Made by a program: the position numbers and the translations under genes
From: Candidatus Poribacteria bacterium
Lineage (GTDB): Bacteria; Poribacteria; WGA-4E; PCPOR2b
Direction: 5' to 3'
Assembly: GCA_965208325.1 (NCBI GenBank)
Contig: OZ242326.1
Span: 2,208,001-2,272,000 of the forward strand
Length of the DNA: 64,000 bases
Notes under the pieces: model-generated
What the model saw: only the letters and a program-made list of their open reading frames with translations
Database searches by the model: none
What the model was told of the DNA's origin: nothing
Shown: piece after piece, positions 24,274-36,062 of the stretch
Layout: every line of letters begins with the position of its first letter
How positions within the stretch are numbered: position 1 is the stretch's first letter

Positions 24274-26910
24274 TCACGCGTCGTCTTTGATGGCGGCTTG
24301 CGCTGCCGCGAGGCGGGCAATCGGAACTCGAAACGGTGAACAGCTTACATAATCCAACCCTAAACGATGGCAGAACTCAACCGAACTCGGTTCACCGCCG
24401 TGTTCGCCGCAGATACCGACCTTGAGATCGGGGCGGGTTTGACGCCCCCGTTCTGTGCCGATTTGCACGAGTTCCCCCACACCATCCTGATCGAGTATTT
24501 GGAACGGATCGCCTTCAAAGATGTCGCTCTCAACGTAATGCTCCAAAAATTTGCCGATATCGTCTCGACTCAGCCCGAACGTGGTTTGCGTCAGGTCGTT
24601 TGTCCCGAAAGAGAAGAATTCCGCCGCTTCAGCGATTTCATTGCCTGTTAATGCGGCTCTGGGGAGCTCTATCATTGTGCCGATGAGGTAATCGACTCTG
24701 ACACCGCTGCCATTGAACACCGTTTCCGCAGTATCAATGACTATCTGGCGTTGTAATACCAGCTCTTTGACATGCCCGACCAAGGGAATCATAATCTCGG
24801 GAATAACTTTAATTCCACGCTTGGACGCATCCACGGCGGCTTCAAAGATGGCGCGCGCTTGCATTTCCGTAATTTCCGGATAGACTATTCCGAGGCGGCA
24901 GCCGCGGTGGCCCAACATCGGGTTTGTCTCGCGCAGCGATTCCACTTGCTTGCGCAGCAATTCGGGAGAACTACCGGTTTTGTCCGCAAGTGCGTAAATC
25001 TCCTCGTCGGTATGCGGCAAGAATTCATGAAGCGGCGGATCTAAAGTTCGGATTGTGACAGGATAACCGTCAATTGCCTCAAAAATGCCGATAAAGTCCT
25101 CTAGTTGGTAAGGCAGTAACTTTGCCAATGCGCGTTTTCGGCCTTTTTCATTTCGCGCGAGGATCATTTCGCGCATCGCATCGATTTGATCTCCCTCAAA
25201 GAACATGTGCTCTGTACGGCAAAGCCCAATACCTTCCGCGCCAAATTCTCGCGCCTTCTTAGTATCCGACGGTGTATCGGCATTGGTACGCACACCAAGT
25301 TTCCTAAATTCGTCCGACCATTCCATCAGCGTTGCAAATTCACGGCTCAATGTGGGTTCAATCAGTTCGACCGCCCCGGCAATAACTTCACCTGTTGACC
25401 CATTAAGCGTAATGTAATCGCCTTCCCCGAATTGCAGCGTATTGATGTGAAATTCCTTGTTCGCCGCATTGACGACGATGGCGCTGCACCCGGCAACACA
25501 GCTTTTTCCCATACCGCGTGCAACGACGGCAGCATGAGATGTCATTCCGCCGCGCGATGTAAGAATTCCCGCAGCCGCATACATCCCGCCAATGTCTTCC
25601 GGCGAAGTCTCCGACCGCACCAATATAACGTCCTCACCTTCGTGCGCTAGTTCCTCGGCACGATCCGCAGTGAAAACCACTTTGCCGACGGCGGCACCGG
25701 GAGAGGCGGGAAGGCCTTTTGCAATCACATCAACAGTTGAATTGGGATCAATCATCGAATGCAACAGTTGGTCAAGGTCGTTCGGCGGTACACGCATCAC
25801 AGCGGTGCGTTTATCAATTAGACCTTCATTGACCATTTCAACAGCGACCCGCACGGCTGCATGACCTGTCCGCTTACCTGCACGGGTTTGAAGCATAAAG
25901 AGGCGCCCATCTTGAATCGTGAATTCCAAATCCTGCATATCGCGATAGTGCGTTTCAAGTCGACCGGCAGTTTCCACTAACTGATTATAAGCGTCCGGCA
26001 AAATGGTACGGAGGTCGTCAATGGGGAGCGGCGTGCGGATTCCCGCGACGACATCTTCGCCTTGTGCATTTACCAAAAACTCACCGTAGAAGCGATTTTC
26101 CCCTGTAGACGGATTTCGCGTAAATGCGACCCCGGTCGCAGAATTGCCGCCCAAGTTTCCAAAGACCATGGCTTGCACGTTTACAGCGGTTTGCCCTTGA
26201 TTGTCGGGGATGTTGTTCAATCGGCGGTAGATAACCGCTCTTTCATTATTCGACGATTCAAACACCGCGTCGCGAGCCATATCCAACTGCCGACGTACGT
26301 CTTCCGGGAAGTCGGCTCCCGTCGCCCGTTTGACAGCCGTTTTGAATTCCAAAATGAGTTCTCCGAGATCGCCCGCGTCCAATTCGGTGTCCAGTTCAAC
26401 GCCTTTTGCCTCCTTCTTCGCTTCCAACAGATGCTCAAAAGTATCATGTTTAACGTTGAGAACAACGTTGCCGAACATCTGTACGAACCGGCGGTAAGCG
26501 TCGTAAGCGAATCGTTCGGATCCCGACTTGGCAATCAGACCCTTGACCGTGTCATCGTTTAAGCCGAGATTGAGAATCGTATCCATCATGCCCGGCATCG
26601 AAATTGCGGCGCCTGATCTCACAGACACGAGCAATGGATTTTCCGGGTCGGCGAACTTTGTCCCCATTGCAGATTCGAGCTTTCCCAAGTTTTCATCAAT
26701 TTGCTGCTCAAGCCCGTCCGGATATGTTTTTTGATTCGCGTAATAAAACTTGCAGACCTCTGTGGATATGGTGTATCCAGGGGGGACTGGTATGCCTAAG
26801 TTTGTCATTTCCGCGAGATTCGCACCCTTGCCGCCGAGCAGCGCACGCATCTCGGCGCTTCCGTCGGCTTTCCCCTCACCGAAAAAATACACATACTTGG
26901 AATGAGACAT
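24274..26910 (-). CDS. ppdK: Pyruvate, phosphate dikinase
   Basis: LLGGKGANLAEM, LLVSVRSGA, SMPGMMDT, GGMTSHAAVVARG, GIGLCRTEHMF, FSFGTNDLTQ, GICGEHGG. Confidence 0.98.
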   Translation of the reverse strand: MSHSKYVYFFGEGKADGSAEMRALLGGKGANLAEMTNLGIPVPPGYTISTEVCKFYYANQKTYPDGLEQQIDENLGKLESAMGTKFADPENPLLVSVRSGAAISMPGMMDTILNLGLNDDTVKGLIAKSGSERFAYDAYRRFVQMFGNVVLNVKHDTFEHLLEAKKEAKGVELDTELDAGDLGELILEFKTAVKRATGADFPEDVRRQLDMARDAVFESSNNERAVIYRRLNNIPDNQGQTAVNVQAMVFGNLGGNSATGVAFTRNPSTGENRFYGEFLVNAQGEDVVAGIRTPLPIDDLRTILPDAYNQLVETAGRLETHYRDMQDLEFTIQDGRLFMLQTRAGKRTGHAAVRVAVEMVNEGLIDKRTAVMRVPPNDLDQLLHSMIDPNSTVDVIAKGLPASPGAAVGKVVFTADRAEELAHEGEDVILVRSETSPEDIGGMYAAAGILTSRGGMTSHAAVVARGMGKSCVAGCSAIVVNAANKEFHINTLQFGEGDYITLNGSTGEVIAGAVELIEPTLSREFATLMEWSDEFRKLGVRTNADTPSDTKKAREFGAEGIGLCRTEHMFFEGDQIDAMREMILARNEKGRKRALAKLLPYQLEDFIGIFEAIDGYPVTIRTLDPPLHEFLPHTDEEIYALADKTGSSPELLRKQVESLRETNPMLGHRGCRLGIVYPEITEMQARAIFEAAVDASKRGIKVIPEIMIPLVGHVKELVLQRQIVIDTAETVFNGSGVRVDYLIGTMIELPRAALTGNEIAEAAEFFSFGTNDLTQTTFGLSRDDIGKFLEHYVESDIFEGDPFQILDQDGVGELVQIGTERGRQTRPDLKVGICGEHGGEPSSVEFCHRLGLDYVSCSPFRVPIARLAAAQAAIKDDA

Positions 26911-26984
26911 CTTAACCCTCTTTTGAATCGCCCCTATGTTTGTTGCGCGTTGAGCAATAGTTACGGATGCAGCATTGAAAATTT

Positions 26985-27016
26985 AACAAAGAAAATCCCT
27001 CCGCGAAGGGAGGGAT
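26985..27016 (-). terminator. Intrinsic terminator after pafA
   Basis: Minus strand reads atccctcc-cttcgc-ggagggat followed by tttctttgtt. Confidence 0.7.
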
Positions 27017-27052
27017 ATATTAACTCAGATTGGAAATTCCGCCGTACTGGAT

Positions 27053-28411
27053 TTAAATTGAATAAATCATACGGCTTGCTTCATCAAAATCCACCTGAAA
27101 GGGGTTGGTTGAAAGGTAGAGCTTTTGGTAGGGTTCGTACAGTTGAATGTAACTCCAATTGACGCCGCAGAGCACCTTCCTTTCGTTTGCCAGTTTTACA
27201 AAACGCCCCCGGAATTTTGCGCGGGTGGTTTCCGGTGGATAGTGCATAGCGTTCTCAATCTCCTTATCGGCAACCATTTTTTGAACAAGGTCTTTTTTTT
27301 CAAGTTTATAATACAATCCGCGGTCCGGCCGGATATTGTGGTACTGTAGATCGAGCATCATGACTTTAGCCGAGTCCCATTTAAGGCGGCGTTGGGTGAC
27401 ATAGGTTTCAATCAATTTTTTCTTGGCGACCCAATCCAGTATTCGATCTAGTTGCATAGGGTCTGTTTCCAAACAGGTCAAAATGTACTCCCAAGCCGCC
27501 ATAATCTTGTTTTCGTCGGCATCCGATTCCTCCTGCTCAAAATACAGTTTAGCGCATTCGAGATACTCTCGTTGAAGTTCGACCGCAGATAGCCGCTTGC
27601 CACTCTCCAATTCAATCTGTTGGGTACAGGTCGTATCTTCCGATATTTGCTGGATTGCTCGCACAGAGTCGCGCAAAGCCAAACGCTTTTTTATGAAATT
27701 GTCCTCAATCATCCGCAAGACAATTGATGTGGTTCCGACCTTTAAAAATGTCGCTAACTCAGACATATTGGAATCGCCGACGATAACGTGCAACCGCCTG
27801 TATTTTTCCCGATCGGCGTGCGGCTCATCGCGTGTATTTATGATCCCTCGAGCTGTTGTCGTAGCAATGGAGATTTCCTCACGGATATGCTGGGCGCGCT
27901 GAGAAATAACGTATTTGCCTCGGTTGGTCGGTTTAACTTTGCCGGCGCCCGCAAAAACTTGGCGAGTGACAAAAAATGGAATCAGTTGTGAAGCGAGTTG
28001 ACGGAAGCTAACGTGCCGCTCCATTAGGTAGTTTTCGTGACAACCGTAGGTGTTTCCGGGCGTATCCGTGTTATTCTTGAAAACTGAAATTCTCCCAAGG
28101 AAGCCGTCCAATCTCATCTTACGTTCCGCAGCAACGGATAGCCGCTCAATAATCCGCTCACCGGCTTTGTCATGGATCACAACGTCGGTTACACTATCGC
28201 ATTCGGGGGTGGCGTACTCCGGATGGCAACCGATATCCTGATAAAAGCGAGCGCCGTTTTCTAGAAATACATCCGGATACATCCGTCCAGAGATGATTTC
28301 GCGAAAGAGATACATCACGGCATTTTGGATGGATAGCGCTTTGCCGCCTCGCCGATCGGAGGTACAAATAATCCCGTATTCATTTTCTAAGCCATAAATT
28401 CTACGATTCAC
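27053..28411 (-). CDS. pafA: Pup--protein ligase
   Basis: RRIYGLENEYG, VFLENGARFYQDIGCHPEYATPEC, KNNTD..GNTYGCHENY, INTRDEPHAD, RRLHVIVGDSN, DLQYHNI, PPETTRAKFRGRF. Confidence 0.93.
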   Translation of the reverse strand: MNRRIYGLENEYGIICTSDRRGGKALSIQNAVMYLFREIISGRMYPDVFLENGARFYQDIGCHPEYATPECDSVTDVVIHDKAGERIIERLSVAAERKMRLDGFLGRISVFKNNTDTPGNTYGCHENYLMERHVSFRQLASQLIPFFVTRQVFAGAGKVKPTNRGKYVISQRAQHIREEISIATTTARGIINTRDEPHADREKYRRLHVIVGDSNMSELATFLKVGTTSIVLRMIEDNFIKKRLALRDSVRAIQQISEDTTCTQQIELESGKRLSAVELQREYLECAKLYFEQEESDADENKIMAAWEYILTCLETDPMQLDRILDWVAKKKLIETYVTQRRLKWDSAKVMMLDLQYHNIRPDRGLYYKLEKKDLVQKMVADKEIENAMHYPPETTRAKFRGRFVKLANERKVLCGVNWSYIQLYEPYQKLYLSTNPFQVDFDEASRMIYSI

Positions 28412-29121
28412 GATGCTAATATCTCTTCGAGTTCATCCGGCAGGAGACGCCTGAATTTACGTCTATTTCTATTTTCATCAAGGACAGCGACTTCTAGCGT
28501 GTCAGCCGAAATGTGATATCTCTGATCTTCGTCCGCCTTCGCCTCAATGGTTTCAAAGCCATTCACAGCCAGCTTTACCGCATCCTTCAACTCTAATCCA
28601 TCTTCGTACGCACCCTCAAGGATTTCTGAAATTTCATCTGATCGCCCGCCAATAATTGCATACTTCTGTTCTTCCCAAAAAGTGCCGTCAAACGAAAGCT
28701 GATAGATTCTATGGCTCGAATCCGGATCTGCCCTAAGTTCGCAAAGAAGCAGTTCGACTTCAAGCGGTTTTGTATCTGTTTGCCAGAAAATTGCGGCAAT
28801 TCGCTGCGAGAAAATATTATTCGTTAGCCATTTCGCAGTAACATCTGCACGGTTGAACGTATAACCCTTGATTTCTGCTTCTCGGATGCCGAGGTATCTT
28901 AGGGCTTCATATTCTGCGATTCGGCCAGTAGCGGCGAGCGCAATTCGATCGTAAATTTCCGAAATCTTGAAGAGTGTCGTCAACGGGTTTTCCGCAACCA
29001 TCACGATGCCGTCTTTGTATTCTAGAACAATAACCTCTTTGGCTCTTTCGATGCCAGTGCGGACAAAATCTGCTTTGTCCTGCATGATTTGTTCCGGCGA
29101 CACATAATACGGTGTGGACAT
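28408..29121 (-). CDS. prcA: 20S proteasome alpha subunit
   Basis: PYYVSPEQIMQDKADF.R.GI, KISEIYDRIA, KPLEVEL, LEVAVLD..R.RRKFRRL. Confidence 0.95.
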   Translation of the reverse strand: MSTPYYVSPEQIMQDKADFVRTGIERAKEVIVLEYKDGIVMVAENPLTTLFKISEIYDRIALAATGRIAEYEALRYLGIREAEIKGYTFNRADVTAKWLTNNIFSQRIAAIFWQTDTKPLEVELLLCELRADPDSSHRIYQLSFDGTFWEEQKYAIIGGRSDEISEILEGAYEDGLELKDAVKLAVNGFETIEAKADEDQRYHISADTLEVAVLDENRNRRKFRRLLPDELEEILAS

Positions 29122-29136
29122 CAACACCTCCTCTCG

Positions 29137-29955
29137 CTACATCTCTCTGAGGTTTTCAATTAACTCAGTGTATAGCCGTTCGACCTCTGAATCCGCAATG
29201 TCTGAAACCCCTCTTCGCTCTATACACTTGATTGTTGGGTAAATTCCACGAATCATATCCGGTCCCGCAGTCCCCAAGTCCTCATCGGCGGCATCCCAAA
29301 GCGCCTCAGCAACAACCCTCAATACCTCATCACGTGCCATATCCTTGCTGTAACGTTTCTTTAAGGTTGTCTGCGCATCCTTGCCGCCGGATCCTATCGC
29401 GTGATAATCTGCTTCTTCATACCGCCCGCCGGTAACATCATATTTATAGATTTTGGCTTGTTTCTCTTTCGGATCATAACCGGCAAAGATTGGAATGACG
29501 TATAATCCCTGCAGCGCCATACCTAGATTCGACTTCACCATGTTTGACAGATGATTTGCCTTGCCTTCCAAACTCAAGGTTGTACCTTCTATTTTTTCGT
29601 AAAACTCAACCTCAACTTGGAACAGTTTTGCCATTTCAATACACGGTCCAGCGACGCCAGCAATTGCAATCGCTGAATGTTCATCTACTTCATATACTTT
29701 TTGGATGCGCCGCTCGCCGACCTGAAACCCTTCTACAGCCTGACGATCGCCGGCAATAATCACGCCATCTTTGTAAACAGCCGCTAACACTGTAGTGCCT
29801 TTGAGCGCATCAAGCGAAGCGGCATGATGCTGCGCGCTTGGCAGCGGCACCTCGGACAACGCCTCCGTGTTGAATGCGGCATACAGTTCAGGACGCCTAC
29901 GCTTGAGGATTTCAAGGAAATCGGAGTTGCCGTAGTCGGCTACATCAAGCAGCAC
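29137..29955 (-). CDS. prcB: 20S proteasome beta subunit with propeptide
   Basis: Propeptide ending G|TTVLA (Thr1 nucleophile), AGDRQA, LSLEGKANHL, YDVTGGRYEE, GSGG, DAADEDLGTAGPD. Confidence 0.95.
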   Translation of the reverse strand: MLLDVADYGNSDFLEILKRRRPELYAAFNTEALSEVPLPSAQHHAASLDALKGTTVLAAVYKDGVIIAGDRQAVEGFQVGERRIQKVYEVDEHSAIAIAGVAGPCIEMAKLFQVEVEFYEKIEGTTLSLEGKANHLSNMVKSNLGMALQGLYVIPIFAGYDPKEKQAKIYKYDVTGGRYEEADYHAIGSGGKDAQTTLKKRYSKDMARDEVLRVVAEALWDAADEDLGTAGPDMIRGIYPTIKCIERRGVSDIADSEVERLYTELIENLREM

Positions 29956-30152
29956 TACTGCCCTCCTCTTTGAATATAATTCTCTACAAATTCTTCTGAA
30001 TCTTCTTCTAAAATTTCGTCAATTTCGTCGAGAAGTTGGTCGAGATCTTCTTTGATTTCCTCGCCCTGTTCCGTAACTTCCGGATCAGGTTGGATTTCCT
30101 CAGCATCTTGAGTCAAGTTATCTTTGTGTTCTTGCTGTTTTTCGGACGGCAT
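29955..30152 (-). CDS. pup: Prokaryotic ubiquitin-like protein Pup
   Basis: 65 aa acidic protein ending DQLLDEIDEILEEDSEEFVENYIQRGGQ; strong AAGGAGG RBS. Confidence 0.95.
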   Translation of the reverse strand: MPSEKQQEHKDNLTQDAEEIQPDPEVTEQGEEIKEDLDQLLDEIDEILEEDSEEFVENYIQRGGQ

Positions 30153-30167
30153 TTATCTCTCCTCCTT

Positions 30168-31667
30168 TTAAAAATTGTTGTTGGAACCGTGAATTGCATG
30201 AACGAGTTCTGATGCCGTACAAGTCCTCAAGAGATTGCCCACAATTTCTTGAGTGCCAAAATGTGGGCGGTCCATTAAGATTTTGTCTAAAGAAGAACCA
30301 TCAAGTGAAAAAATCATCGAATTCCAACTCGCGCTATGAATTTCGTGCGGGTATTTTTGCAAACACACACCCCGAAAATAGGCGCGTGTATCAACCGGTG
30401 GATGGGTTACAGCGTAGACGATTTCCTCTTGATTGAGTATACGTTCGACGTGTCCGTTTTTGAGTAACCTGACATATAGCCCTTTGTTGGGCCGTATGTC
30501 GTGATATTGCAGATCCATCATCCGGACGCGGGGATGCGACCAACTGACACCGCGGCGTTCGATATATGCAGTGATGAGGTTTTTCTTAATCACCCAATCG
30601 AGATGCCGCTCTAGCAGCATTGGATTGACTTCGAGCTGATTGAGAACAAACTCCCATTTGTCCATCACATCCTGCATCACTGGCGTAAAATCCGCCTTAG
30701 GAAGATGTTTATGAGCCAGTTCAAGATAAGCCCGCTGCACTTCGATCGGCGTCCATCGACGTCCATCGTCCAAATCGAGGGGATTTTTACATGATGAATC
30801 TCGCGACACCGTTTTGATTGCAGCAACTGGGTCTGACAGTTTGAATGCATCCCCCACCACACCCATTTCAATTAATTTCAGCACAATCGACGTGATTCCG
30901 ACTTTCAAATAGATGGTGAACTCTGACATATTGGAATCACCGACGATTACATGCAATCGGCGGTATAATTTTTCATCGGCGTGGGGTTCGTCGCGGGTGT
31001 TGATTATCGGACGAGCCACCATAGTGCTCAACCCCACTTCCGTTTCAAAGAAATCTGCACGCTGCGAGATTTGATAGTCCGTTTCCTCCGCGCCGTTTTC
31101 GGCGCCAACTTTTCCGCTGCCGGTGATGATTTGCCGCGTCACTAGAAACGGGGTTAACCCCGCGACAATGTCCTGAAAAGGAATACTCCGATTCATCAGG
31201 TAGTTTTCATGGCTGCCGTAGCTATGACCTTTATAGTCGCTGTTATTCTTATATATGATGATGTCTTGGTTAGCCGGCAGCAACTCTTCCGCAGCCATGC
31301 GGCTCAAATCTAATATCAGCTCTCCCGCCTTTTCATACTTCACAAGATCACGGGCATTTGTACATTCTGGCGTGCAATATTCCGGATGCGCATGGTCAAT
31401 ATAATACCGCCCACCGTTAATAAGAATGTCGTTGATGAGACTGTTGTTTTCTTGGTCGGGAGGATTGCTTTCGCCCTCGGATATAAACCCCCTTGCATCC
31501 ACCAATGGGTTTTCCTGCTCATAATCCCATGTGATGCCCTTCGGCCCCCGATCCTTATAGATATTTACGATGAGTGTCGAAGCGGCGACTGGATCCTGAT
31601 CGCGCGCATTTTTTACCGAAATCCCATACTCGGTTTCGGTTCCCATAATCATCGGTGTTGTTGTCAT
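30168..31667 (-). CDS. dop: Pup deamidase/depupylase
   Basis: IMGTETEYGI, WDYEQENPLVDARG Dop loop, NGGRYYIDHAHPEY, KNNSDYKGHSYGSHENY, SQRADFFE.EVGL.T, TRAYFRG. Confidence 0.94.
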   Translation of the reverse strand: MTTTPMIMGTETEYGISVKNARDQDPVAASTLIVNIYKDRGPKGITWDYEQENPLVDARGFISEGESNPPDQENNSLINDILINGGRYYIDHAHPEYCTPECTNARDLVKYEKAGELILDLSRMAAEELLPANQDIIIYKNNSDYKGHSYGSHENYLMNRSIPFQDIVAGLTPFLVTRQIITGSGKVGAENGAEETDYQISQRADFFETEVGLSTMVARPIINTRDEPHADEKLYRRLHVIVGDSNMSEFTIYLKVGITSIVLKLIEMGVVGDAFKLSDPVAAIKTVSRDSSCKNPLDLDDGRRWTPIEVQRAYLELAHKHLPKADFTPVMQDVMDKWEFVLNQLEVNPMLLERHLDWVIKKNLITAYIERRGVSWSHPRVRMMDLQYHDIRPNKGLYVRLLKNGHVERILNQEEIVYAVTHPPVDTRAYFRGVCLQKYPHEIHSASWNSMIFSLDGSSLDKILMDRPHFGTQEIVGNLLRTCTASELVHAIHGSNNNF

Positions 31668-31692
31668 AAGCTAAAAGAATAGATTGACATCT

Positions 31693-33507
31693 TTAAAGGT
31701 ACGCCCCGCCCTTTACAACTCTTACATCTTTCCTCTTGCGATCGGGTTCGTTCATCAAAGCTCTGATATTGACAATTCGTTCGCCTTTCCGCCCGGAAAT
31801 CTTTGCCCAATCATCTGGATTCGTTGTGTTTGGTAAATCTTCGTTTTCTTTATATTCCTCTCGGATAGCGAGTTGAAGATCTTCAAGCGTAATGCCCCGC
31901 TCTGCTTCTTCAGAATTGATTAAACGCTTGATTGCTATCTTTTTACTTCGAGCAACGATGTTATCAATCATCGCACCGCTCACAAAATCTTTGAAGTAAA
32001 GCGTTTCGCGCTCTCCGCGCGCATAAGTCACTTCAATGAATCTATTGTCTTCCGTTGTGGCGTACATCTCATCGACCGCTTGATTAATCATGTGCTGAAT
32101 TGCATTTTCCGGCTTTTGCTCAAACTTCTCTAATTCAGAAGGCGCAATGGGTAAATCCGGGGTCAAGTATTTTGAGAAAATATCCTTCGCACCTTCTGCC
32201 GTGGGCCGGTCGATTTTGATTTTGATGTCCAGCCTACCGGGGCGCAAAACGGCGGGATCAAGAAGATCTTGTCGATTACTAGCCCCAATCACAATCACGT
32301 CATGCAACCCCTCAACACCGTCAATCTCAGCGAGAAATGTTGGGACAACCGTGGACTCCATGTCGGATGAGATACCCATTCCTCTTGATCTGAATAAAGA
32401 ATCCATTTCATCGAAGAAAATGATGACAGGCACACCTTCTTTCGATTTTTCTTTGGCTTTCGAAAACACTTCCCGAATCTTACGTTCAGTCTCTCCTACA
32501 TACTTATTTAGAAGTTCTGGACCCTTGACATTTATAAAAAACCCTTTGACATCATCTCGACCTGTATGTTGGCGCACCCGTTCTGCCAGATTGTTAGCAA
32601 CAGCTTTGGCAATCAAGGTTTTTCCGCAGCCGGGCGGCCCGTAAAGAAGGATGCCAACCGGTGAAGTTAAACAAAACTCCTTATATTCATCCGGATACAA
32701 GTATGGTGTTTCAATTGCATCACGTATGGCTTCAATCTGTGGATTCAAACCGCCAATGTTTGCATACTTGATGTCCGGCACCTCTTCAAGCAATAAATCT
32801 TGCACCTCGGCGTTTGGAAGTTTCTCCATGACCATTCCGGTTGTATGATTGAGCAATACAAGATCGCCCGATCGAATCGGCTCTGATTTCAGCAGATCGG
32901 AAATCTGAACAACCCGTTCTTCATCAGCACGGAGATTAACGATTATGCGGGTTTCATCAAGCCGCTCCTTTACTTTAACTACCTCGCCATGCTGGTCAAA
33001 ATCTCTAACGGCGACGATGTTCATCACACCGTTGACAATAACTTCTTGGCCCTTTTGAAGTTGCTCAACGTTGATGTCCGGATCGACATTGACTTTCCAT
33101 CTTTTTCCAGAGAGATCGATGTCAACTGTTCCGTCATCGTTGGACTGGAGAAATGCGCCGTAGTTATTTGGGGGAGCGCTTAATTGCTCCACTTTTTCTT
33201 TAAGGTGCTCCAGTTTCTCTTTGGCTTCCTGAAGTGTGCTGGTCAGTTTCCGATTTCGACGATGCGCCTGCATTAATTCGCGCGTCATTTCGTAAAGCCG
33301 GATTTCAACATCGTCAGACGGGACGGCATTTAACCGCCTTCTTAGATTATCGACTTCGCTTTCCAGAGATTCGACAGTGAACTGCAATTCACGAATGCGT
33401 GTTTCATACGAAACCCGTTCCGATGAAGAAGGTGTCAGATCCAATGTTTCCTGAATGTCTTCACGTTTTGTGGAACCTCTTTTTTTGGTAGCCATAGTTT
33501 TACCCAA
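31693..33507 (-). CDS. arc: Proteasome-associated AAA ATPase (ARC/Mpa)
   Basis: N-terminal coiled coil, OB domains, GPPGCGKT, KGPELLNKYVGETER, FFDEMDSLFR, ENEDLPNTTNPDDWAKISG, C-terminal GAYL. Confidence 0.96.
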   Translation of the reverse strand: MGKTMATKKRGSTKREDIQETLDLTPSSSERVSYETRIRELQFTVESLESEVDNLRRRLNAVPSDDVEIRLYEMTRELMQAHRRNRKLTSTLQEAKEKLEHLKEKVEQLSAPPNNYGAFLQSNDDGTVDIDLSGKRWKVNVDPDINVEQLQKGQEVIVNGVMNIVAVRDFDQHGEVVKVKERLDETRIIVNLRADEERVVQISDLLKSEPIRSGDLVLLNHTTGMVMEKLPNAEVQDLLLEEVPDIKYANIGGLNPQIEAIRDAIETPYLYPDEYKEFCLTSPVGILLYGPPGCGKTLIAKAVANNLAERVRQHTGRDDVKGFFINVKGPELLNKYVGETERKIREVFSKAKEKSKEGVPVIIFFDEMDSLFRSRGMGISSDMESTVVPTFLAEIDGVEGLHDVIVIGASNRQDLLDPAVLRPGRLDIKIKIDRPTAEGAKDIFSKYLTPDLPIAPSELEKFEQKPENAIQHMINQAVDEMYATTEDNRFIEVTYARGERETLYFKDFVSGAMIDNIVARSKKIAIKRLINSEEAERGITLEDLQLAIREEYKENEDLPNTTNPDDWAKISGRKGERIVNIRALMNEPDRKRKDVRVVKGGAYL

Positions 33508-34176
33508 CCTAATTTTTTAAATTGCGATTTGACTCATTATCAAAAATCAACTGATAGTACGTAGGAATGCAGCGATCGATTACAACTCTAGCAAGTAAAA
33601 TTGATACTCGTTATCTGAAATCGTGCATTTGACTGTCGAGCTGGAAGGAGGGAAATTAGATTGGAAGGGGTTACATTCCGTCGGCTGGGTGCACCTGTGC
33701 GGGATTGCCCGCTCAATGCAAATTTGTTTTTCAGGTAAGGATATATATCGGCAATGCCTCGTAAAAATTCGACTTGCACCGGATAGCCGCTTTGGCTGCC
33801 GCAACCGTAACCAACGTAAGACTGAGCATTGCCAGTATTAGCGCATTGAAGACACTGATCACCGAATTGCTGAAGTTCGGGTGTTGTCCCACTGCATTCC
33901 GCATCATTTTGAAAATCCGCTGCTTTTGCATAGAACATATCAGCTATTTCCGACTCATCTGCTTATAGGCGCTTTATCAATGCACGTGACGAGAAACGCG
34001 ACTTAAACTCGAAAATCTTAAGTAGCCAGAAACTACCCAATGGCCTTCACAATTCAAATGCATCGTACTATGCGTAACCGCCCAGTTACGCCAGGTTTAG
34101 TATTGAAACCGTGTAGCATTTCCCGATGGAAAAGCAACTAAAAATAGTCGTCATTTTGGACGCTACAAGCGGTTAG

Positions 34177-34205
34177 ATTATAGCATTCGCCTATAATCGT
34201 GTCAA
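34177..34205 (-). promoter_or_regulatory. Consensus sigma70 promoter pointing at the Pup-proteasome operon
   Basis: Minus strand TTGACA (34205-34200), 17 nt spacer, TGn-TATAAT (34182-34177). Confidence 0.75.
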
Positions 34206-34419
34206 GGAAAATATCCGAAACTGGCAGGGCTCGCGCCGTTCAGTTACAAGCACAGAAACCTTTCGGCGAGCGAGCCATGGCGCTGATTTCAAGATTGCCC
34301 ATTCTCGTTGTTATTGCTAATGCGCATTATATTGATTTTCCGCTGGAAATTGGTGCGCCGCCGCGACTGCGACAAATCCCGGCACTGCAGTTTCACTTTA
34401 CTTAGATGCAACCGGACTC

Positions 34420-35478
34420 CTATTCCTCAACGGATTCTCGGGCATCAACATCGTCCCCAACAGAGGCGGTGCCTGGCGGGCTATGAACTCCTAATTTTTC
34501 TCGAATTTTGGTTTCGATTTCAGCGGAAATTTCGGTGTGTTCTTCTAGGTAAAGCTTGGCGTTGTTCCTACCTTGACCAAGCCTATCGCCTCCATAGGCA
34601 AACCATGCGCCGCTCTTTTCAATGATGCCTTCATCTACACCGACATCAAGAATACCGCCTTCTTTCGAGATGCCGTCTCCAAAAGTCAAATCAAACTCAG
34701 CTTGCCGAAATGGCGGCGCCACCTTGTTTTTGGCAATCTTGACGCGTACTCGGTTGCCAATGGCTTCATTTCCTTCTTTCAGGCTCTCGACCCGCCGCAT
34801 TTCAAGTCGCACAGAGGCATGAAATTTGAGCGCTAATCCGCCAGGCGTAGTTTCCGGGTTGCCAAACATAACGCCTATCTTCTGACGAATCTGGTTTGTA
34901 AAAACAACACAGGTCTTTGACCGATTTGTAATACCGCTGAGTTTACGCAGCGCTTTGGACATTAAACGCGGCAATAAGCCCACATGCGCGTCACCCATAT
35001 CCCCCTCAATTTCCGCTTGAGGTGTCAACGCCGCCACCGAATCAATCACAACGATGTCAATTGCCCCGCTGCGAATAAGGGTTTCCACAATTTCCAACGC
35101 TTGTTCGCCGGTGTCCGGCTGAGAAATGAGCAGCTCATCCATATCTACACCGATGCGTTTTGAATAATTGGGGTCTAGTGCGTGTTCAACATCTACAAAT
35201 GCCGCAACCCCTCGTTGTTTTTGTGCTTCAGCCACAACATGCAGCGCAAGCGTTGTTTTTCCGCTCGATTCGTGGCCGAAAATTTCGACGATGCGCCCGC
35301 GGGGCACGCCACCTACACCGAGCGCAATGTCTAGTGCAAGCGAACCTGTAGGAATAGATTCGACCGGAACAATTTCAGTACTGTTAAAGCGCATTATCGC
35401 GCCTTTACCGTGTTGCCGCTCAATTTGTGTTATTGCAAGATCGATGGTATGGTTCTTTTCATCTCTTGTCATCATCAA
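34420..35478 (-). CDS. recA: Recombinase RecA
   Basis: [57 protein letters not shown]. Confidence 0.98.
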
Positions 35479-36062
35479 ACCTCCATATTCAATCTACACG
35501 ATTTTAAGCGGGTGTAGACCGCCCCTGTCAATTGCAGTTGGCTCCGCACAAGTGTAATCTCCTCGACCGTCATTGAGGCGCCGTCAATTTTCTCATATTG
35601 CTGAAACGCATCGGTGAACGGTCGCAAATCCATCCGCTTCTTAATTCTGGCGATTGTCAAATGAGGGCTTGCTGCTCTTTCATCGCGCGGAAATCCACAT
35701 CGATCTAGTTCAAGGTTGATTTCTTTGGCTAACTCACTTATGTCGGCACTCCCATCTTTAACACCGCACCAAACCACCCTTGGGCGTTTTAGATTCGGAA
35801 ATGCGCCAATCCCTCCAACCCGCATCGTAAATGGGAAATGCCCCATCGCTACCTTCTGGATGGCAGCTTCAATCGTACCGAGCTGGGTGTGTTCAACCTC
35901 TCCCAAGAATTTTAATGTAAGGTGAAAATCTTTCGGGATAACCCATGACGCATGGCGAATACGTTTTCTGAGTATATCTTGAATTTGTGCCAACTTGTCT
36001 TGAATTGTGGACGGGATTTCGATTGCTACGAAACAACGAATTCGCTGCGATGTGTTTTGCAT
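35475..36062 (-). CDS. thpR: RNA 2',3'-cyclic phosphodiesterase (2H family)
   Basis: Two HxT motifs ([15 protein letters not shown]), GAFP..RPRVVW; usual position upstream of recA. Confidence 0.92.

Follow-up and report, generated by a model that had tools for sequence, protein, structure and literature searches.

The window analysed here, a 64,000-nucleotide stretch of a Candidatus Poribacteria genome, carries on its minus strand, at positions 27053-33507, a complete and intact Pup-proteasome operon. Very probably this operon is native and functional, works as the mycobacterial system does, and stands beside a separate UBact-type operon in the same genome. The source genome is a single contig of 4.71 Mb, estimated to be 95.6% complete, and the window corresponds to its positions 2208001-2272000. 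Six intact co-oriented open reading frames (ORFs) fill the interval. They encode the proteasome-associated AAA ATPase ARC/Mpa (arc/mpa, 31693..33507, 604 amino acids), the Pup deamidase/depupylase (dop, 30168..31667, 499 amino acids), the acidic tag (pup, 29955..30152, 65 amino acids), the beta and alpha subunits of a 20S proteasome (prcB, 29137..29955, 272 amino acids; prcA, 28408..29127, 239 amino acids) and the Pup ligase (pafA, 27053..28411, 452 amino acids). A sequence-only reading of the window, made earlier without database searches, had already described six contiguous intact components; all six ORFs lie at the coordinates that it gave, with the expected family matches and motifs.

Five of the six proteins score above the NCBIfam equivalog cut-offs, PafA being the exception, and Pfam agrees for all six. 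All six also match solved actinobacterial counterparts. The genes are tightly packed. The same reading had described the junctions as overlapping, which holds for pup/prcB (1 nucleotide) and prcA/pafA (4 nucleotides); the other three junctions are gaps of 9, 15 and 25 nucleotides.

The two enzymes of the tagging cycle were assigned from several sides. For PafA, the best-scoring model was TIGR03686 (529.5 bits, as compared to 426.2 bits for the Dop model). The protein also matched PF03136 with 520 bits, scored 344.3 bits against the solved actinobacterial structure, and was placed by tree. Residues G7, E9, E11, D59, H63 and E65 were invariant in the alignment examined. Dop reached 566.8 bits with TIGR03688 (cut-off 492.3). 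Over residues 7-497 it matched 5lrt, a solved Dop structure, with 497.8 bits; it aligned in full length to both 5lrt and 4b0r, and the tree agreed. The GxExE motif is intact in both enzymes, as is the Asp of D-x-x-x-H-P-E. When the two are aligned, residue 47 of PafA falls opposite residue 82 of Dop, showing that the extra N-terminal segment is present in Dop.

The tag itself was recognized by TIGR03687 (48.7 bits; cut-off 41.45) and PF05639 (65.4 bits), and it matches Pup models only, not the UBact model. It ends in RGGQ, in agreement with the GGQ end noticed at the outset, and has a net charge of -20 and an isoelectric point (pI) of 4.05. Residues 27-65, its C-terminal half, align to M. tuberculosis Pup chains. 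We compared the 30 best Pup loci of Poribacteria, a sample biased to close relatives. The last ~25 residues were nearly invariant in 30/30 loci, which probably counts as a sign of selection. The ending was GGQ in 15/30 loci, including the genus of the window, and GGE in the other 15/30, all from two sister genera; the same Q/E alternation occurs in Actinomycetota loci. At the fourth residue from the end, Arg was found in 30/30 Poribacteria loci, as compared to Lys in every Actinomycetota Pup detected. In mycobacteria, that Lys is a reported site of pupylation of Pup itself. If this role holds, Pup-on-Pup chains through that position would be excluded in Poribacteria.

The downstream machinery is equally recognizable. 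ARC scored 704.9 bits with TIGR03689 (cut-off 504.75), and its match to Mpa chains of M. tuberculosis, 7px9 among them, covers residues 71-586 with 590.9 bits. The N-terminal region is a coiled coil; Pfam recognizes the two OB domains (Prot_ATP_ID_OB_N and Prot_ATP_ID_OB_C) and the AAA domain. The Walker A motif, GPPGCGKT, lies at residue 290 and Walker B at 362. The C-terminus is GGAYL, a docking-type GxYL tail, and a YL ending was shared by 42/45 of the Pup-type ARC tails compared. PrcB reached 281.6 bits with TIGR03690 (cut-off 191.9), and its alignment to 2h6j, the beta subunit of Rhodococcus, scored 217.7 bits. It has a 53-residue propeptide with a G|TT site at 53/54, so that the mature chain starts at Thr54. 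In mature numbering (Thr54 = 1), the catalytic set Thr1, Asp17 and Lys33 is present in full. PrcA matched TIGR03691 with 258.4 bits (cut-off 139.05) as well as PF00227. The GAYL tail of ARC and the G|TT site of PrcB had both been picked out from the sequence, and both are there.

By homology with the mycobacterial system, from which every biochemical step and all substrates are deduced, the operon would work as follows. Pup would be made with a C-terminal Gln, which Dop would deamidate to Glu. With ATP, PafA would then couple the side-chain carboxylate of this Glu to lysines of target proteins. The coiled-coil N-terminus of an ARC/Mpa hexamer would catch Pup, and the ATPase would unfold the tagged protein. 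Docked by its C-terminal GxYL tail on the PrcA/PrcB 20S core, ARC would hand the substrate over for degradation at the Thr1 sites. Dop would also strip Pup off again. This scheme is deduced, whereas gene content, motifs, conservation in the lineage and the placement of the enzymes in trees are observed.

The identity of the host and the conservation of the operon were then considered together. Close PafA homologues with 80-87% identity are named 'Pup--protein ligase [Candidatus Poribacteria bacterium]' by NCBI. A PafA 98% identical to that of the window lies on another Candidatus Poribacteria chromosome with the same flanks: PgsA, LigT and RecA upstream, PPDK and SPFH genes downstream. These matches bear out the earlier view of the host as a non-actinobacterial diderm belonging to Poribacteria. 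A PF03136 match was present in 41/41 relatives (14 genera, 4 families). On a wider scale, the window PafA was matched in 118/121 sampled genomes of the phylum, with E < 1e-200 in 114. The remaining matches were one partial copy at a contig end and three whose best value was only ~1e-100, which is the level of the paralogue. The three genomes in which PafA was not matched come from another class, where they fall into two families. Pup was present in 116/121 of these genomes. In 5/5 named Poribacteria loci (PafA 72-98% identical), all six genes are kept together and the context runs PgsA-LigT-RecA-arc...pafA. Overall, the operon is by all appearances native to Poribacteria and vertically inherited there. 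Some Poribacteria carry, in addition, tandem pafA duplicates 76-82% identical to the window PafA (G123:C3:1138659-1141561, G111:C1:1979956-1982854 and G032:C1:4517605-4520504). Two genomes have a third PafA-like gene with 62-65% identity in a ~690-codon frame (G006:C1:5742859-5744172 and G022:C5:3727208-3728515); its representative, P0122, has 677 amino acids and a ~215-residue N-terminal extension.

Outside its own cluster, the nearest representatives of the window PafA were from Candidatus Moduliflexus (52% identity), Ilumatobacteraceae (49%) and Tectomicrobia (47%). Among named genomes, identities were 53-57% with Methylomirabilota/NC10/Rokubacteria, 51-53% with Acidimicrobiales, 50-51% with Myxococcota and 50% with Nitrospira. 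Trees of PafA and Dop had been named beforehand as a check, and we built two maximum-likelihood trees of the family, with 59 and 65 rows hand-picked for spread over phyla. For the 59-row tree, 29 of 80 named loci gave PafA and 19 gave Dop; the 65-row tree held fewer Actinomycetota rows. In both trees the window PafA falls in the PafA clade with 100/100 support, and Dop falls in the Pup-type Dop clade. In the 59-row tree the poribacterial PafA and Dop clades, each supported at 100/100, lie outside the Actinomycetota clades, themselves 100/100, and the 65-row tree agrees. The host, named as Poribacteria by the matches described above, is neither actinobacterial nor a member of Nitrospirota, the two placements that had been given beforehand as a refutation.

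The 59-row tree groups Actinomycetota PafA with that of Rokubacteria/Methylomirabilota at 100/99. When the paralogue serves as outgroup, Actinomycetota PafA does not sit at the base but is nested, next to Rokubacteria/Methylomirabilota, with this support. According to a proposal in PMC7947786, Actinobacteria were the origin from which the pathway spread. Such a nested position would not fit that proposal, with the reserve that the two trees conflict at depth (see below). The 65-row tree resolves four enzyme clades, namely UBact-type ligase (100/100), UBact-type Dop (100/99), PafA (100/100) and Dop (100/94), and each of them holds separate Poribacteria and Nitrospirota sub-clades. Deeper, the two trees conflict: ligases are opposed to Dops at 93/95 with 59 rows, whereas UBact-type ligase joins UBact-type Dop at 81/83 with 65 rows. 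Because of this disagreement we make no claim as to whether the duplication into ligase and Dop preceded or followed the split between Pup and UBact.

Contiguity of the region was checked on independent assemblies. A contig from a public run spans window positions 26000-35500 with 0 differences, though this run may be the source sample itself. In a different study, one contig matches the stretches 26000-34328 (361 differences) and 34416-35104 (50 differences), at ~96% identity. Since independent contigs span the order PPDK-pafA...arc-recA, a chimeric join is unlikely. The only hint of expression comes from a sponge metatranscriptome library, in which eight listed contigs with 90-95% identity fall on pafA, prcA, prcB, pup, dop, arc and recA, and one 891-nucleotide contig of the RNA library bridges prcB, pup and dop. 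Cover is missing over the leader (32657-33924) and around the terminator, gaps from which no inference was drawn.

The same chromosome holds a second system of the same general design. The Pup-ligase family gave four matches in the genome, the second pair lying at ~66-73 kb. There we found a second complete six-gene operon in the same order, at ~66,364-73,424 of the contig (L005:8365-15425, minus strand), between valS and a dnaE2-type polymerase gene. It encodes an ATPase, a Dop-like enzyme, a 66-residue UBact, PrcB-like and PrcA-like subunits and a PafA-like enzyme. The tag scored 75.3 bits with the UBact model NF033388 (cut-off 35; match at contig positions 69449-69604) and ends in RTGE. As this complete operon has its own PrcB-like and PrcA-like genes, the genome specifies two 20S proteasomes. 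A fifth match to the proteasome family is HslV (contig 3904648-3905253, L116:1149-1754, minus strand; 254 bits, cut-off 137), so that the cell has HslV besides two 20S cores. UBact was found in 115/121 genomes of the phylum sample, and both tags in 113/121.

The two systems differ in charge and in docking tail. Proteins of the Pup system and of the UBact system are 25-41% identical, and BLASTP detected no similarity between the Pup and UBact tags. As compared to the strongly acidic Pup, UBact has a net charge of +5 and a pI of 10.0. The relation is reversed in the ligases, PafA having a pI of 8.4 and the UBact-type ligase a net charge of -29 and a pI of 5.0. The first 115 residues of the ATPase carry a net charge of +1 in the Pup type and of -12 in the UBact type. 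The YL tail, found in 42/45 Pup-type ATPases, occurs in 0/9 of the UBact type, which end in II, VI or IE; all nine UBact-type ATPases examined thus lack the penultimate Tyr.

We also modelled the complex of the UBact-type ligase with UBact. The predicted complex scored 0.84, as compared to 0.00 for the best of 3 controls, with contacts agreeing to at least 61% over three runs and a partner confidence score (predicted local distance difference test, pLDDT) of at least 52. The pass mark used is reached by 116/157 solved complexes and by 2/215 mismatched pairs, counts that hold only roughly for this model because our own alignments were used. The predicted groove that takes up residues 39-66 of the tag extends to residues 11-15 and 71-74 of the ligase. 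Resemblance to the PafA-Pup complex already solved may account for the pass.

Pairing of the two operon types was also looked for in Nitrospirota. Genes for Pup and UBact occur together in one Nitrospira genome. Of 81 Nitrospirota genomes sampled, 37 had the ligase family at E <= 1e-60, and 18 of these had four matches in two loci. Both operon types were present in 6/6 of the four-match genomes inspected. The pairing of Pup and UBact operons is therefore not unique to Poribacteria. In some lineages the tag gene is not at its usual place: Pup-type operons lacking pup between dop and prcB were seen in Nitrospira (L029, L031, L032, L035 and L039), in Rokubacteria (L013 and L014) and at loci L124 and L125. 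In one Nitrospira and one Rokubacteria genome, Pup lies on a different contig from the operon.

These observations led us to consider that two ubiquitin-like degradation codes, orthogonal to each other and each with its own 20S core, operate in the same cytoplasm in Poribacteria and many Nitrospirota. One code would consist of the acidic Pup, a basic ligase and ARC with its YL docking tail. The other would consist of the basic UBact, an acidic ligase and an ATPase whose N-terminus is acidic and which lacks the YL tail. The co-occurrence of both tags in 113/121 genomes, the pairing in Nitrospirota, clade support of 100/94 to 100/100, the reversed charges and the UBact complex model all speak for it. 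We put this proposal forward tentatively, its chance being a little short of even. If it is true, UBact is not 'the Gram-negative Pup' but a system of its own that diverged anciently, and a bacterium can have several pathways of proteasomal tagging.

Instead of two codes, the Pup and UBact operons could form one intertwined network that shares tags, ligases, unfoldases or 20S cores. The Pup-type ARC, for instance, might be the only ATPase docking on either core, given that the penultimate Tyr is lacking in 9/9 UBact-type ATPases as compared to the YL of 42/45 Pup-type ARCs. The retention of both operons in 113/121 genomes and the 25-41% identity of their components would also suit sharing. Opposed to it are the opposite tag charges (-20 and +5), the inverse pI of the ligases (8.4 and 5.0), the absence of BLASTP similarity between the tags, the full six-part set in each operon and the deep separation of the four enzyme clades. 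On balance we regard such a network as unlikely, while giving it some weight. A different doubt concerns the link of tagging to degradation. Tagging by Pup could be mainly regulatory, or only weakly linked to the proteasome, bulk degradation being left to the UBact system or to HslUV and other proteases. The case would then be like that of bacteria in which pupylated proteins are not passed to a proteasome. The genome does contain a second complete 20S operon and HslV, and a search for Bpa, PAC2 and PafBC found no homologue linked to the operon, the BPA controls being silent as well. Against this, prcB and prcA lie inside the operon with intact catalytic residues, ARC keeps the YL tail that all nine UBact-type ATPases lack, and the six genes are conserved together in 5/5 loci. 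A mainly regulatory role is accordingly quite improbable.

The origin of the operon can also be questioned. It could have been gained recently from Actinobacteria by horizontal transfer, or represent an actinobacterial contaminant misassembled into the genome. Its gene order is identical to that of Acidimicrobiia loci, and sponges also host Acidimicrobiia with the same operon, such as Candidatus Poriferisocius, whose PafA is 50% identical. The GC content of the operon, 0.45-0.49, is slightly under the 0.51-0.53 of the preceding stretch; it is however just as low at 36-40 kb and at 48-62 kb of the window. The closest PafA from outside Poribacteria reaches no more than 52-57% identity. Throughout the class the operon is conserved together with its context on the recA side, and independent contigs span both junctions. 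Because the poribacterial PafA and Dop clades (100/100) lie outside those of Actinomycetota in both trees, the operon is not a recent gift from Actinobacteria. We consider recent transfer or contamination extremely improbable.

Several points weigh against a native operon that works as in mycobacteria. PafA, with its 529.5 bits, is 22 bits under the TIGR03686 cut-off of 551.3. Deamidation of a C-terminal Gln is apparently not universal in the lineage; the GGE tags of 15 of the 30 closest loci would need none. PAC2 gave no match. BPA gave no match either, a result that is uninformative since control genomes were equally silent. The sole WYL-domain gene of the genome is unlinked to either operon. 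This gene (contig 3322389-3323360, L117:890-1861, minus strand) encodes a single WYL-WCX protein of 323 amino acids beside an IS200-like transposase gene, and is not a pafBC-like pair. The second tag-proteasome system of the cell could share or take over functions. Finally, a related strain (90-95% identity) is the source of the contigs in the RNA library, which may also contain carried-over DNA.

The surroundings of the operon were scanned for signals and for other genes. A terminator-like hairpin with a T-rich tail lies at 26995..27016 on the minus strand (read 27016-26995), 37 nucleotides past the pafA stop. The terminator expected there from sequence inspection was thus recovered, as a candidate from a consensus scan only, the scan giving 13 terminator-like sites in the region as compared to 8.0 expected. 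A candidate sigma-70-like promoter, also from a consensus scan only, lies at 34177..34205 on the minus strand (read 34205-34177), where it follows closely on recA and precedes arc by ~670 nucleotides. It agrees with 12/12 consensus positions (TTGACA, 17 nucleotides, TATAAT, with TG). The gap between recA and arc in which this site lies (33508-34419, minus strand) is ~900 nucleotides long, as compared to ~240-350 nucleotides in three other Poribacteria loci. It also holds a 66-codon ORF with one hydrophobic stretch at 33731-33931. Domains of transposases or integrases, or of the WYL (pafBC) type, were absent from all 42 of the window's larger ORFs, consistent with the earlier statements that no mobile-element genes flank the operon and that pafBC is absent. 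The window gave no Rfam match at gathering thresholds, and a tRNA scan was likewise empty.

In the open literature, we found no paper treating pupylation in Poribacteria, in keeping with the sequence-only reading, to whose knowledge it was uncharacterised. The UBact report of Lehmann and colleagues (2017, Biochem Biophys Res Commun) is said to list Poribacteria. The occurrence of Pup and PafA outside Actinobacteria is itself not new: it has been in print since 2008, and NCBI names proteins of Poribacteria accordingly. Right in substance, the sequence-only reading thus set the novelty too high. PMC2588565 (2008) places Pup and PafA in Nitrospirae, Verrucomicrobia, Deltaproteobacteria and Planctomycetes, and PMC7947786 (2020) lists them again for several Gram-negative phyla, with sporadic occurrence. 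Term searches in the reviews PMC6466877 and PMC12288473 gave no mention of Nitrospirota, of phyla or of UBact. In reviews, the proteasome of bacteria is still presented as an actinobacterial one. The non-actinobacterial enzymes studied here are not nested in the actinobacterial clade. Taken by itself, the operon is a further conserved, vertically inherited example of the known non-actinobacterial Pup systems, from a phylum of sponge symbionts. With the second operon, what had looked like a Pup system in an odd host becomes a pair of tag-proteasome systems side by side. The added interest lies in this lineage-wide pairing of Pup and UBact operons with oppositely charged tags, which permits a direct test of separate degradation codes. 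Arg stands directly before GGQ in Pup and before TGE in UBact, and trypsin is expected to leave on lysine the remnant GGE from Pup and TGE from UBact, with calculated masses of about +243.09 and +287.11 Da, respectively. Since these remnants differ, one metaproteome could read both tags.

A close comparison is with the actinobacterial Pup-proteasome system, as in M. tuberculosis, M. smegmatis and, for the 20S core, Rhodococcus. Its six parts and their order are those of the window operon; the order arc-dop-pup-prcB-prcA-pafA is common to the window and to loci of Acidimicrobiia and other Actinomycetota. Both have a Pup ending in GGQ, paralogous Dop and PafA, an ARC made of coiled coil, OB and AAA domains with a GxYL tail, and a PrcB with propeptide and Thr1. 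The window differs by its host, a diderm candidate phylum, and by a PafA that is 48-53% identical to and branches outside the actinobacterial clade. It also has Arg for Lys near the end of Pup, no pafBC after pafA, no PAC2 found and a UBact-type system alongside.

As compared to the UBact-proteasome system, which has a homologous six-gene architecture, the window operon is set apart by an acidic tag that fits the Pup model, by enzymes in separate clades and by an ATPase with a YL tail. Its tag neither matches the UBact model nor ends in RTGE. Tag, Dop, ARC and 20S core all belong to the Pup type; PafA joins them by tree and best hit, its curated score falling narrowly short. The nearest PafA relatives, in Nitrospirota, Myxococcota, Rokubacteria/Methylomirabilota and Candidatus Moduliflexus (50-57% identity), share the same architecture and also lie outside Actinomycetota. 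The operon slot of pup was without it in the loci examined from Nitrospira and Rokubacteria, whereas Poribacteria keep it between dop and prcB. Overall, the Pup system is class-wide in Poribacteria, in contrast to its sporadic occurrence in other Gram-negative-type lineages.

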